This document shows, piece by piece, positions 13,114 through 20,370 of a DNA stretch of 64,000 bases (positions are counted from its first letter, which is position 1; every line of letters begins with the position of its first letter). Origin of the DNA: Vulcanimicrobiota bacterium (GTDB lineage: Bacteria > Vulcanimicrobiota > Xenobia > Xenobiales > Xenobiaceae); the NCBI GenBank assembly GCA_944322965.1, contig CALUQR010000009.1:8845-72844 (forward strand), in the 5' to 3' direction. The notes below the pieces were generated by a model that searched no databases, was not told the origin of the DNA, and saw only the letters and a list, made by a program, of their open reading frames with translations. The position numbers and the translations under genes were made by a program.

Positions 13114-13629
13114 ATGAGTCCCACCGCTCACACCCAAGCCAATTTTATCCTCACTTTTAAGTGGGGCGAACAGACCTTCGCCCTCCCCCTCCATTGCGTA
13201 GTACGCGTAGAGCAGGCGGTAGCGCTGACCCCCCTCCCCGGCGCCCCGGAACACGTCTTGGGGCTCCTCAATAATCACGGCCAGCTCCTGCCCGTCCTCG
13301 ATCTGCGCCCCTCTCTCCATCTGCCTGGCGGCAAATTGGCCTTCCGCGACCAGCTCATTATCTGTCGCAACGAAAAGCGCTCCCTGGTCTTAGTCGTAGA
13401 TCGCGTCTTGGGGGTCAGCAGCTACCATTTGGAGGTCAAGACCTCCTCCCTCCTCAAAGCCGCCCTGCGCATCCACAGTCTAGTCCAGCTGGGTCCAGAT
13501 CTCATCCTGCTCACTACCCCTGAGCGCCTCTTAGAGGTAGAGAGCGTCCAAGAGTTAGAGGAATTGCTCACCGTCTGGCAGGGGGCGGCTCCCCAGGCAG
13601 GTCCCCTCCCTCAAGATTCGAAGCTCTAA
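13114..13629 (+). CDS. cheW: CheW-like coupling protein (FrzA-like)
   Basis: Single CheW domain (FALPLHCVVRVEQAVALTPLPGAPEHVLGLLNNHGQLLPVLDL). Confidence 0.75.
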   Translation: MSPTAHTQANFILTFKWGEQTFALPLHCVVRVEQAVALTPLPGAPEHVLGLLNNHGQLLPVLDLRPSLHLPGGKLAFRDQLIICRNEKRSLVLVVDRVLGVSSYHLEVKTSSLLKAALRIHSLVQLGPDLILLTTPERLLEVESVQELEELLTVWQGAAPQAGPLPQDSKL

Positions 13630-13635
13630 GGGCCT

Positions 13636-14961
13636 ATGGATGCCCGCTTACAGCGCCTAGCCGATTTGCTGCAAAATTGGGCCGGTCAATGGTTCCCCCC
13701 CGGCCGGCACGCCGATTTGGCGCGGTCTTTAGAGAAGTTCGCCTCCCAAGTAGACGCCCAGGGCGATTGGGAGAGGGCGCTAGAGATCTTGGAGGCTAAT
13801 CCCTCGGCCGCTATGCGCCAGAGCGTCCTCCAAGAGGTCTTAGTGGGAGAGACCTATTTCTTTCGCGATCCCCAATTGTGGCAGAGCCTGCGCCTAGAGA
13901 TTATCCCGGCCCTCTTAGAGGCTAAAAGTTCTGAAAGTAGCCTCTCCATCTGGAGCCTAGGCTGTTCGAGCGGGGAAGAGCCCTACGGCGTCGCCCTCTA
14001 CTTAGCCCACTACTTCCCCCAGTTAATTAATTGGCGGATCAATATTTGGGCTAGCGATATTTCCTCTGTGGCCCTAGAGCGAGCTAAGGCCGGCCTCTAC
14101 GGGGAGCGCTCTATGCGTTTAGTCCCCCCAGAACTGCGCCGGCGCTGGTTTACAAAGGTCCCCCAAGGTTGGCAGATCGCCGCCCCGCTGCGCCAACGTG
14201 TCCACTGGCAGGAGCAGAACCTCTGCGCCGCCGATCCTCCCCTCCTGGAGGGGCGCCAGTGGGATCTTATCCTCTGCCGCAACGTCTTAATCTACCTCCA
14301 GCCCCACCTCTTAGGGGGTACGGTAGAGAGGTTGGGTTCTAAATTGAATCCCCAGGGTTGGCTCATCTTAGCCCCCATGGAGATCCCCCTCCACTTACCC
14401 GCTAACCTGCGCTTAGAGCAGACTAAGAGCCAACTTTTAGCCCTGCGCCCCTCCCTAAAGCCTAAGCTAGAGCCTAGCGTAGCGCCCCTCTCTCCCCCTC
14501 TAACTCCCGCGCCAGCGCCTAAAGCCCTGGAAGAGCCTAGCGCTCCCTCCCCTTTAGGCCCTCCCACCTTAGAGCGGGCCCAAGCTAGCGCCCAGCGGGC
14601 CCAGCGCTTAGCCGACAGCGGCCAGCTCCAAGAGGCGCTCTGGGAAGCTATCAATAGCGTCGATACCTGCCAAACCTTTATTGGCGGCTGGTTGAGCTTG
14701 GCCTTAGTCCAGGGCGAGTTGGAACTCTACGAAGAGGCCCTCGATTCGCTGCAGAAGGCCCTCTATCTCGATCCCCAGAGCCCCTGCACCTACCTCTACT
14801 TGACGCGCATCTTGCACACTTTGCACGATCCCCAGTACCAGCGCTACCAGACCATCTTTTTCCAATTAGTCCAAACCCTACCCGATAGCGCCCCTCTCCC
14901 TTACGGTTGGGGCCTGCAGGTGGGGGAAGCCAAAGAACTTTTGCGCACCTTGACCTCTTAG
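13636..14961 (+). CDS. cheR: CheR-type MCP methyltransferase with C-terminal TPR domain (FrzF-like)
   Basis: CheR SAM-binding core (SLGCSSGEEPY...ASDIS...ILCRNVLIYL). C-terminal TPR-like helical repeats. Confidence 0.8.
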   Translation: MDARLQRLADLLQNWAGQWFPPGRHADLARSLEKFASQVDAQGDWERALEILEANPSAAMRQSVLQEVLVGETYFFRDPQLWQSLRLEIIPALLEAKSSESSLSIWSLGCSSGEEPYGVALYLAHYFPQLINWRINIWASDISSVALERAKAGLYGERSMRLVPPELRRRWFTKVPQGWQIAAPLRQRVHWQEQNLCAADPPLLEGRQWDLILCRNVLIYLQPHLLGGTVERLGSKLNPQGWLILAPMEIPLHLPANLRLEQTKSQLLALRPSLKPKLEPSVAPLSPPLTPAPAPKALEEPSAPSPLGPPTLERAQASAQRAQRLADSGQLQEALWEAINSVDTCQTFIGGWLSLALVQGELELYEEALDSLQKALYLDPQSPCTYLYLTRILHTLHDPQYQRYQTIFFQLVQTLPDSAPLPYGWGLQVGEAKELLRTLTS

Positions 14962-19350: not shown

Positions 19351-19353
19351 AAG

Positions 19354-20370
19354 ATGGAGCGGGCGCCCATCTCTTTGCTCTTAGTAGACGGCGATTGGGG
19401 GCGCCTCAACTACTACTTGCCCGCTTTAGAGCAAGCGGGATTTACAGTCACCCCAACGAGCCCCCGTTCCCTCTGGCAGACTCTAGCCCAATGGCGTCCG
19501 CAGATAGTCCTCTTAGCCCCTTTAGGCTCTAAATTGGAGACCGCCACCCTGGCGGCCGAGATTATGGAGCGCTCGCCCTTGCCCATAGTGGCTATTTACG
19601 ATCCCCAGGCCCCCGACGCCCAGGTAGACGTCCACTGGTGCGGGGCCATGGCCGTCCTGCCCCAGCCTCCGCCCTCCTCCGCCCTCGATCCCCACTCCGC
19701 CCACTGGCGAGAACTCTGCCAGACGCTGCGCCTTATGCATGTCGTTCCCCCCGTGCGCCGCCGTCTGACGGCCCCGCGCCCCCAGCCCTCTTCTCTAGCC
19801 CCAGCGCGCCCGCCCGCTCCTAAGCTAATAGCTATCCTCTCCTCCACCGGCGGCCCCCAAGTCTTGCCCGCTATCTTAGGCGCCTTACCCGCCCCTTACC
19901 CGCGCCCTCTCATCTTGCTCCAACATCTCACTTTGGGCTTTGAGGAGACCTTCTGCCAGATGTTAAGCCAGCAGATCCAATTGCCGGTCCAACCTATCCG
20001 CTCCGGCCAGCCTCTAACTCCCGGGGTCTTGCAGGTAGCTTGCGCCCAACACGTCTGGCTCACCGAGAAGGGGCGCTGGCGCGCGGCCCCTCCGGAGCGC
20101 TTCCCCGGCTACTGCCCCTCCGGCAACCTGCTCTTAGAGAGTCTAGCCAAATTCCGCCCCCAAGAGACGGTAGCTTTAATTTTGAGCGGTATGGGCGACG
20201 ATGGAGCGCGCGGCTTGAGCCTCCTCCATAAGCGCGGGGGCTGGAGCGCCGTCCAAGATCCCGCTACTTGTATAGTAGATAGTATGCCCCGCCAAGCCCT
20301 GGCCCAAGGGGCGGCGGAGGCCATTTTGACCCCCGCCCAGATGGGCCAACTCCTAGCTAGTTGGGAGTAG
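19354..20370 (+). CDS. cheB: CheB-type methylesterase with degenerate (pseudo-)receiver domain (FrzG-like)
   Basis: Catalytic-domain motifs STGGP, QH and GMGDDGARGL. The N-terminal REC-like fold has Ala at the phospho-Asp position (IVLLAPLG). Confidence 0.7.
   Translation: MERAPISLLLVDGDWGRLNYYLPALEQAGFTVTPTSPRSLWQTLAQWRPQIVLLAPLGSKLETATLAAEIMERSPLPIVAIYDPQAPDAQVDVHWCGAMAVLPQPPPSSALDPHSAHWRELCQTLRLMHVVPPVRRRLTAPRPQPSSLAPARPPAPKLIAILSSTGGPQVLPAILGALPAPYPRPLILLQHLTLGFEETFCQMLSQQIQLPVQPIRSGQPLTPGVLQVACAQHVWLTEKGRWRAAPPERFPGYCPSGNLLLESLAKFRPQETVALILSGMGDDGARGLSLLHKRGGWSAVQDPATCIVDSMPRQALAQGAAEAILTPAQMGQLLASWE

Follow-up and report, generated by a model that had tools for sequence, protein, structure and literature searches.

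The described chemosensory pathways that come closest to the locus reported here are Che3 of Rhodospirillum (R.) centenum, Wsp of Pseudomonas and Burkholderia, and Frz of Myxococcus xanthus. Che3 controls cyst formation, belongs to the alternative cellular function (ACF) class and consists of two CheWs, CheR, CheB, one methyl-accepting chemotaxis protein (MCP) and a hybrid of CheA and a receiver (REC) domain, CheA3, which phosphorylates a receiver of a second kinase, CheS3 (PMC3868531). Wsp signals through a receptor of the 40H type, a CheA-REC and a CheR-TPR (PMC5907407); in Burkholderia, the hybrid kinase WspH, encoded in a separate upstream unit, replaces WspR and the output is independent of cyclic di-GMP (c-di-GMP), and strict wspA-F synteny with wspR or wspH is found only in Beta- and Gammaproteobacteria (PMC8552884). 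Frz is a small ACF subfamily that has been recognised only in the myxobacteria closest to M. xanthus and is marked by FrzZ, by its gene order and by the non-membrane receptor FrzCD (PMC3441718). In this study, a chemosensory operon of six same-strand open reading frames (ORFs; 13114-20370, plus strand) was analysed in a 64-kb stretch of contig CALUQR010000009.1, hereafter the window, which belongs to an uncultured, gut-associated lineage of the class Xenobia in the phylum Vulcanimicrobiota (Eremiobacterota). We propose, with a probability of roughly 0.7, that these genes form a single operon encoding an ACF-class pathway in the style of Wsp or of R. centenum Che3.

Class assignment followed the Wuichet and Zhulin classification in the form in which papers citing it give its ACF criteria. 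A C-terminal REC domain has been called characteristic of ACF CheAs (PMC3441718). REC-bearing CheAs fall mostly into the F3, F5, ACF and Tfp classes, the F5 class being marked by two CheW domains, and more than one Hpt domain is seen mainly in Tfp and ACF CheAs (PMC10542144). Moreover, CheR-TPR proteins are found predominantly in ACF clusters that have multidomain REC outputs, REC-kinase fusions included (PMC3447774). The CheA of the window has a single Hpt domain, a single CheW domain and a C-terminal REC, an architecture that also fits F3, and the domain set alone does not separate F3 from ACF. A multidomain REC protein is encoded with the cluster as well, namely the product of a divergent gene whose domains read as a pseudo-receiver, a degenerate DHp, a CA domain and a REC; it is a candidate output only.

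Architecture of the operon and its counterparts

The gene order, as assigned with Pfam, is CheW, CheR with a TPR-like tail, CheW, an MCP with two transmembrane (TM) segments, CheA-REC and CheB (Table 1), and the successive intergenic gaps measure 6, 18, 18, 6 and 3 nt. An earlier note on this DNA had given the same location and gene content, and the ORFs match its coordinates exactly, with Pfam domains in agreement; its observation that the TTG start of cheA falls 6 nt past the mcp stop was also confirmed, and its range of 6-22 nt for the gaps is corrected to 3-18 nt. The N-terminus of CheA is real, because homologs span 99-100% of the query. No sigma-70-like site was detected in the region between the operon and the divergent gene, the overall scan for promoter and terminator consensus sequences gave no more than chance when compared with shuffled sequence, and an Rfam scan of the window returned tRNAs only. 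Two further ORFs at this end are products of ORF calling: a 663-aa ORF (11329-13320, minus strand) is a mechanical over-extension of the divergent kinase gene into cheW-1, and a 177-aa antisense ORF (12584-13117, plus strand) is an artefact.

In CheA, His57 lies in an HSLKG motif and is aligned to H48 of E. coli CheA. A Pro/Ala-rich linker occupies the place of the P2 or CheY-binding domain, for which no Pfam match was obtained at E<=1. The receiver residues D611/D612, D655, T685 and K707 are the equivalents of D12/D13, D57, T87 and K109 of CheY and are invariant in the alignment. As judged from the sequence, the signalling residues of CheA (Hpt His57, the ATP-binding core, P5 and receiver D655) are all canonical.

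The receptor was described in the earlier note as having two TM helices, and two hydrophobic segments (Kyte-Doolittle peaks with window starts at aa 15-24 and 177-189) together with a HAMP domain bear this out. Residues 1-200 gave no Pfam match, the periplasmic region of approximately 135 aa thus being without a family match. Relative to E. coli Tar, a 36H receptor, the MCP carries two symmetric 14-residue insertions that are common to five receptors of same-order clusters; the indel pattern, on which the call is made alone, would place it in the 40H group (36H plus two heptads per arm). The hairpin is highly conserved, and EE/EQ pairs, read by eye, occupy aa 295-296 and 490-492, the expected places of methylation sites. 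In the C-terminal extension of CheR, one TPR-like repeat (aa 352-381) was found, with a TPR_1 score of 25.3 bits against a cut-off of 27.8. The ortholog in the Xenobia locus L001 clears the thresholds of TPR_2, TPR_11 and TPR_19, and the CheR proteins of relatives from other phyla give weak TPR matches too.

Beyond Xenobia, the CheA homologs that rank next share 35-37% identity over 99% of the length, and their four-domain architecture is the same. The order CheW, CheR(TPR), CheW, MCP(HAMP), CheA-REC, CheB was found in the three contexts sampled, those of Nitrospirillum, Methylomonas and a Desulfobaccales metagenome-assembled genome (MAG), so that clusters of this order occur in Alphaproteobacteria, Gammaproteobacteria and Desulfobaccales; tblastn showed it also in an unclassified MAG (L007). 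Nitrospirillum is, like R. centenum, a member of the Azospirillum group. The gene directly after cheB encodes REC-PAS-GAF-GGDEF-EAL in Nitrospirillum, where two REC-kinases precede the cluster, a REC-PAS-HisKA kinase in Methylomonas, and REC-GAF-PAS-HisKA_3-HATPase in the Desulfobaccales MAG, an arrangement in the manner of Wsp and of R. centenum Che3. Because clusters of identical order recur in these three groups with a membrane MCP, such a receptor is normal for this type of cluster, and the view that a membrane-bound MCP is unusual here has to be given up.

Compared with R. centenum Che3 by published description, the operon has the same components, and a further likeness lies in the second kinase: CheS3 carries receivers of which one is an Ala-substituted pseudo-receiver (PMC3868531), and the kinase of the window likewise has a pseudo-receiver. 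The differences are that no CheY3-like single-domain regulator was seen in the window, that the kinase gene of the window is divergent and missing from sister genomes, and that CheS3 has an active HWE kinase and bears its phosphorylatable receiver at the N-terminus, whereas in the window kinase the canonical receiver is C-terminal and a Lys stands in place of the H-box His. The E. coli Che system (F7) has homologous MCP, CheW, CheA, CheR and CheB proteins; it differs in having P2, a stand-alone CheY and CheZ, a 36H receptor and the phospho-acceptor D56 in CheB, and in lacking a CheR TPR and a CheA REC.

CheB, the divergent kinase and a possible signalling route

The N-terminal part of CheB (aa 1-155) gave no Pfam REC match even at E<=1. 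The phospho-acceptor position is occupied by A55, where 46 of 46 database CheBs have Asp; G13 and Q104 stand where all 46 have Asp and Lys, respectively, and Y82 where the residue is mostly Ser or Thr. The pseudo-receiver with Ala at the phospho-acceptor that the earlier note had recognised is therefore upheld, and it is also without the second acidic residue and the conserved Lys. The catalytic triad S164/H191/D283 is kept, as it is in all of the 46 homologs and in 148-149 of 149 representatives. An AlphaFold2 model (mean pLDDT 89.5) has a (beta-alpha)5 N-terminal domain and a TM-score of 0.82 to the full-length CheB structures 6YMZ and 1A2O; this fold is partly imposed by homology, since the 47-sequence alignment behind the model consists of canonical CheBs.

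The six Xenobia CheBs have A, A, H, S, C and S at the acceptor position and no Asp in any, which indicates that the pseudo-receiver is old and clade-wide; E. coli and three cross-phylum relatives have Asp. Moreover, when 1.84 billion representatives were searched exhaustively, some 35 of the other 149 top-scoring CheBs, a sample biased by the degenerate query, had no Asp (G, A, S, E, H or N instead) and kept the triad. A CheB with a receiver predicted to be non-phosphorylatable is thus clearly a trait that recurs across lineages, not one unique to the window. No discussion of CheB pseudo-receivers was found in the searchable literature.

The divergent gene had been described as encoding a REC-HK-REC hybrid kinase. 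In terms of fold this description stands; the N-terminal REC is degenerate, no HisKA domain was detectable (Pfam, E<=1), and the C-terminal REC is the only canonical one. The N-terminal pseudo-receiver has Lys61 at the position of Asp57 and Gly-Glu at the acidic pair, and the G1 box of the CA domain reads DNALG. When the protein was aligned with its positional orthologs in the Xenobia loci L011, L013, L033 and L034, the H-box 'DVAHELNNPL' of L013 and L033 fell on 'VLAKLLTERT', so that the His is replaced by Lys202. The DHp region has only one further His, H235, and at this position some strains have Pro. The kinase therefore reads as a pseudo-receiver, a degenerate DHp, a weak CA domain and a canonical REC. 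Outside its own species, no relative above approximately 33% identity over 40% of the length was found among 5.8 billion proteins. In the otherwise well-conserved kinase of L011 (4224-5774, minus strand), Leu takes the place of the H-box His seen in L013 and L033 ('DVALELNNPL'), which may reflect a genuine loss or a variant of the assembly.

The residues for receptor-controlled autophosphorylation of CheA, for transfer to D655, and for methylation and demethylation are all present in the sequence. By analogy with the family, the receptor, the CheWs and CheA would form an array in which a stimulus alters CheA autophosphorylation. The phosphoryl group would pass to D655 of CheA itself, whose receiver would serve as sink or regulator in the manner known from FrzE and CheA3, and also to an external receiver. 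D502 of the divergent kinase lies in the only other canonical receiver encoded nearby and is the best local phospho-acceptor candidate. A role of this protein as acceptor, sink or modulator and not as an autokinase is proposed because its H-box His is a Lys, its N-terminal receiver is degenerate and its C-terminal D502 is canonical; we hold this proposal tentatively, at somewhat below even odds. Kinase partners of a chemosensory pathway have precedents in CheS3 of R. centenum (PMC3868531) and in WspH of Burkholderia (PMC8552884). The kinase gene is absent from L001, L003 and L027, in which MCP, CheA and CheW are kept, and this marks the protein as accessory and not as the essential output; that output might be the receiver fused to CheA or else an unlinked regulator. 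Adaptation would proceed by CheR methylation and CheB demethylation, and since the regulatory domain of CheB is predicted not to be phosphorylatable, the classical feedback from CheA to CheB would be absent. A non-flagellar physiological output, as the earlier note had it, is plausible: no flagellar or pilus Pfam family occurs among the called genes of the window, and the only cultured isolate of the phylum has type IV pili, by which it moves, and no flagella (PMC9758169).

Reduction across Xenobia and competing explanations

The loci of related Xenobia differ in the genes that surround and make up the operon. L011, L013/L014 and L033 (CheA 51-53% identical to that of the window) have a canonical Sua5 gene and a HisKA-HATPase-REC kinase gene, divergent and upstream, followed by CheW, CheR, CheW, MCP, CheA-REC and CheB; after cheB come a REC-HisKA-HATPase kinase, a GH114 protein (in L011 and L013/L014 only) and a methyltransferase-phosphatidylserine decarboxylase (PSD) fusion. 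L034 (51%) has an upstream 637-aa protein in which Pfam finds only a REC, then the full set of six, and is without the REC-kinase, GH114 and PSD genes. The window has the kinase lacking the H-box His, the six che genes and PSD directly after cheB. L001 (57-59%) has no divergent kinase and the same six genes followed by PSD. L003 (56%) has no kinase, retains CheW, MCP and CheA, and carries PSD; CheB is absent. L027 (57%), a locus that came from a metagenome scan, has no kinase and no CheB and consists of CheW, MCP and CheA, again with PSD. In L003, which comes from a Bruticola-like genome, an FkbM-type methyltransferase (Methyltransf_21/22; 5491-6456, plus strand) occupies the position of cheW-1 and cheR.

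MCP, one CheW and CheA-REC are therefore kept in every Xenobia locus examined, and the genes lost in some of them are those for the REC-kinase after cheB, for the divergent kinase and, beyond these, for CheR and CheB. The two CheWs behave differently: cheW-1 is 44% identical to its L001 ortholog and is missing from the reduced loci L003 and L027, and cheW-2, 53-59% identical across the Xenobia relatives, is the CheW that these minimal loci keep. As inferred from the fuller relatives, the REC-kinase downstream of cheB has been lost in the lineage of the window, and tblastn found no copy of it or of GH114 elsewhere in the window. Compared with the L001 orthologs, identity is 31% for CheB, 57-63% for CheA and MCP, and 75-88% for GDH, the M20 peptidase and PSD. 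The loci might be read as a natural reduction series from nine genes (the hybrid kinase, the six che genes, the REC-kinase and GH114) to CheW-MCP-CheA-REC, with the window as an intermediate in which CheB phospho-feedback has been abolished and the partner pseudokinase survives only as a receiver-bearing acceptor or scaffold; taken as a whole, this reading is speculative and we consider it rather doubtful.

Several points weigh against an ACF pathway with the signalling route proposed above. The ACF assignment is based on architecture, gene order and literature criteria, with FrzE, WspE and CheA3 compared by description. The TPR repeat of the window CheR scores under the Pfam threshold. The closest sister genomes, L001, L003 and L027, are without the hybrid kinase, and the alignment that puts a Lys at its H-box His is built on only approximately 26% identity. 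Of the genes here, those for the kinase and CheB evolve fastest, and relaxed constraint could be responsible. Furthermore, the view was limited to 64 kb, and flagellar, pilus or stand-alone CheY genes could lie elsewhere in the genome.

Relaxed constraint leads to the explanation that the pathway is vestigial, decaying in a host-associated lineage and leaving genes with little or no function. Stepwise losses would fit this, those of REC-kinase and GH114 in the window and L034, of the divergent kinase in L001, and of CheR, CheB and CheW-1 in L003 and L027; so would the orphan, fast-evolving kinase with its degenerate H-box, the degenerate CheB receiver and the low identity of CheB to its L001 ortholog, and the adjacent Sua5-like gene, which is degenerate and in one strain truncated. 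However, the six che ORFs and the kinase gene are full length and free of frameshifts on dozens to more than 100 contigs, the CheA motifs, the MCP hairpin, the SAM domain of CheR and the CheB triad are all intact, MCP and CheA still share 57-63% identity with another genus, and the MCP-CheA-CheW core is kept even in the smallest loci. Decay is accordingly considered unlikely.

A second explanation is that the operon is Wsp proper, a sensor of surface contact or envelope stress that controls c-di-GMP through a WspR-type REC-GGDEF protein encoded elsewhere. The Pseudomonas (WspR) and Burkholderia (WspH) systems have the same parts as the window, namely a membrane MCP, two CheWs, CheR-TPR, CheA-REC and CheB, so that the component set is that of WspA-F (PMC8552884); the same-order relative Nitrospirillum has a GGDEF-EAL gene after cheB, and a GAF-HD protein is encoded in the window at 33358-35028. 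The position of the genes speaks against it: the MCP gene comes first in Wsp and fourth here, there is no WspR, and the host is non-proteobacterial, outside the groups to which strict wspA-F synteny is confined. Moreover, neither the window nor the Xenobia loci examined contain a GGDEF gene, the gene after cheB in the fuller loci being a REC-kinase. WspF is phosphorylated by WspE (PMC8552884), whereas the CheB of the window is predicted not to be phosphorylatable, and the window kinase, unlike WspH, is without an H-box His. Identity with Wsp is thus very unlikely, and an ACF pathway that resembles it remains the preferred reading.

The earlier note had called the operon Frz-type, matching the Myxococcus pathway one-for-one, which at the level of orthologs would mean reversal of polarity in surface motility via MglA/RomR-type modules. 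Part of this stands, in that the broad class is the same: Frz is an ACF system with FrzE as CheA-REC, FrzF as CheR-TPR, two CheW-like proteins and a CheB homolog (PMC3441718, PMC5907407), and the window shares the CheA-REC without P2, the CheR tail and the two CheWs; the type IV pilus motility of the phylum's only isolate would suit the reading. The features of the Frz subfamily are absent. FrzCD is cytoplasmic, and the receptor of the window has two TM segments and a HAMP domain. The Frz genes are ordered frzA-frzB-frzCD-frzE-frzF-frzG, which differs from the order W-R-W-MCP-A-B found here. Among the genes called in the window, Response_reg occurs only in CheA and the hybrid kinase, so no FrzZ-type dual receiver is encoded there, and none was found in L001, L011, L013, L033 or L034. 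In addition, the CheA of L005, the only Myxococcota locus recovered, is approximately 37% identical over the CheA core, no closer than the 31-38% of the other distant loci from unrelated phyla. The one-for-one match does not hold, and a Frz ortholog in the window is highly improbable; 'Frz-like' is an over-specific label, for which 'ACF-class' is the fitting one.

A conventional flagellar chemotaxis system of an F class is scarcely credible, for although its core proteins are homologs of the Che set (over P3-P5, CheA and E. coli CheA share 32% identity), the operon is without P2, a stand-alone CheY, CheZ, CheC and CheV, its CheR has a TPR tail and its CheA a REC, no flagellar Pfam family was found among the called genes of the window, and the NCBIfam flagellar models for CheA, CheR, CheW and CheB score far under their cut-offs (for CheA, 200 bits against 793).

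Neighbouring genes, host population and significance

Table 1. Coordinates of the features of the locus, in nt of the window
Feature	Coordinates	Strand	Details
Sua5/YrdC-like gene	10206..11336	-	376 aa; overlaps the kinase gene by 8 nt; Pfam 36.8 bits
Hybrid 'kinase' gene	11329..13050	-	573 aa; start at 13050; 573-aa length on >100 contigs
Kinase, canonical C-terminal receiver	11365-11697	-	Response_reg 75.7 bits; D457, D502, T532, K550
Kinase, weak CA domain	11776-12144	-	Pfam HATPase_c 35.5 bits
Kinase, N-terminal pseudo-receiver	12739-13023	-	hhalign against REC profile 93.7%, E 1.9e-7
Divergent intergenic region, kinase gene/cheW-1	13051..13113	.	63 nt; presumed site of both promoters
cheW-1	13114..13629	+	First operon gene; 171 aa; Pfam CheW 71 bits
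cheR	13636..14961	+	C-terminal extension of ~180 aa
CheR, SAM-binding domain	13849-14370	+	Pfam CheR 144 bits
CheR, TPR-like repeat	14689-14778	+	
cheW-2	14980..15495	+	171 aa; Pfam CheW 64.5 bits
MCP gene	15514..17157	+	547 aa; Pfam HAMP and MCPsignal
MCP, TM1	15562-15627	+	~aa 17-38; hydrophobicity
MCP, TM2	16045-16107	+	~aa 178-198; hydrophobicity
MCP, HAMP	16102-16257	+	Pfam
MCP, signalling domain	16567-17034	+	MCPsignal
cheA-REC	17164..19350	+	728 aa; TTG start; Hpt, HATPase_c, CheW, Response_reg by Pfam
CheA, Hpt	17194-17424	+	Pfam
CheA, HATPase	18118-18522	+	Pfam
CheA, CheW-like P5	18541-18930	+	Pfam
CheA, receiver	18982-19320	+	Pfam
cheB	19354..20370	+	338 aa
CheB, pseudo-receiver	19354-19737	+	
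CheB, CheB_methylest	19828-20352	+	

The host species is common, since over 100 blocks of the assembly collection contain exact copies of window proteins. An identical CheA is present on the NCBI MAG GCA_949288465.1 (contig CASEKG010000022.1), the nearest named relatives are 'Candidatus Bruticola' MAGs with a CheA identity of 56-57%, and related loci come from human-gut assemblies, those of the Hadza included. Five assemblies that stem from separate samples and studies (L022-L026, equivalent to 4980-25495 of the window) are collinear and without indels. These haplotypes differ by 14-25 single-nucleotide polymorphisms per 20.5 kb (~0.1%), with 0-3 segregating codons per gene, a near-identity that suggests a gut population of wide distribution and very clonal structure. 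At the protein level, the variation among cluster members amounted to 2-3.5% variable sites in all three proteins compared.

The Sua5/YrdC-like gene on the far side of the kinase gene is degenerate, as the earlier note had maintained. Sua5/TsaC proteins act in t6A synthesis. The L011 ortholog (3070-4176) scores 123 bits and has a Sua5_C domain, against 36.8 bits in the window and 19.8 bits in L001 (4366-5454); the protein had no sequence match in the PDB, and its identity between genera is approximately 25-29%, versus 84-88% for the neighbouring M20 peptidase. In the haplotype L026, the gene (5227-6357) is interrupted at codon 79 by a premature stop. Either the genome encodes a further TsaC at another place, or the gene is being lost or repurposed.

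On the other side of the operon, the PSD gene (20471-21766, plus strand) has an N-terminal extension of approximately 240 aa, which in relatives is clearly a class-I methyltransferase (Methyltransf_12/25; L011 15563-16900, L013 15615-16952, L033 14836-16173) and in the window gives only a faint match (E 0.009). The methyltransferase-PSD fusion is kept in every Xenobia locus examined except L034, and it adjoins pssA in the fuller loci. A functional link of the che operon with the Sua5-like or methyltransferase-PSD genes was considered and rejected as probable synteny, since housekeeping genes are the neighbours in relatives: dodecin, lipoate/biotin ligase and mraZ on the Sua5 side, and pssA, rseP, dxr, cdsA and uppS on the PSD side.

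Farther along the window, the gene at 24001-25590 (plus strand) encodes HemolysinCabind (RTX) repeats together with a Peptidase_M91 domain, M91 being the family of NleD-type zinc proteases that is known among type III effectors. Such a pairing is unusual in a lineage of gut commensals. At 32002-35028 (plus strand), a gene for a 438-aa radical SAM/SPASM protein precedes one for a GAF-HD/HD_5 protein (556 aa). The latter is possibly a phosphodiesterase of the HD-GYP type, and apart from the kinase gene no further gene of a signalling type was seen in the window. The region 49584-62668 (minus strand) has very large genes, among them ORFs of 743 and 798 aa for two fusions of Wzy_C (O-antigen ligase-like) and TPR, a gene for a 1479-aa TPR-rich protein and several for proteins without a family match, and it may be a cell-surface polysaccharide or envelope locus.

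In conclusion, the operon adds a member to the known ACF kind and overturns no current understanding. With it, a pathway of the Wsp/Che3 style is placed in the class Xenobia, an uncultured lineage that belongs to a little-studied phylum and recurs in human and primate gut metagenomes. The recurrent CheBs with receivers that are predicted to be non-phosphorylatable, roughly a quarter of the 150 top-scoring representatives, hint at adaptation free of kinase feedback, a mode that has received little discussion. If the reduction series is true, signalling would proceed via receivers attached to catalytically dead modules, and the CheA-fused receiver may be the output itself, a minimal ACF design not yet characterised experimentally. 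The set of genes that the Xenobia loci always keep offers a concrete hypothesis on the minimal functional core of ACF systems.

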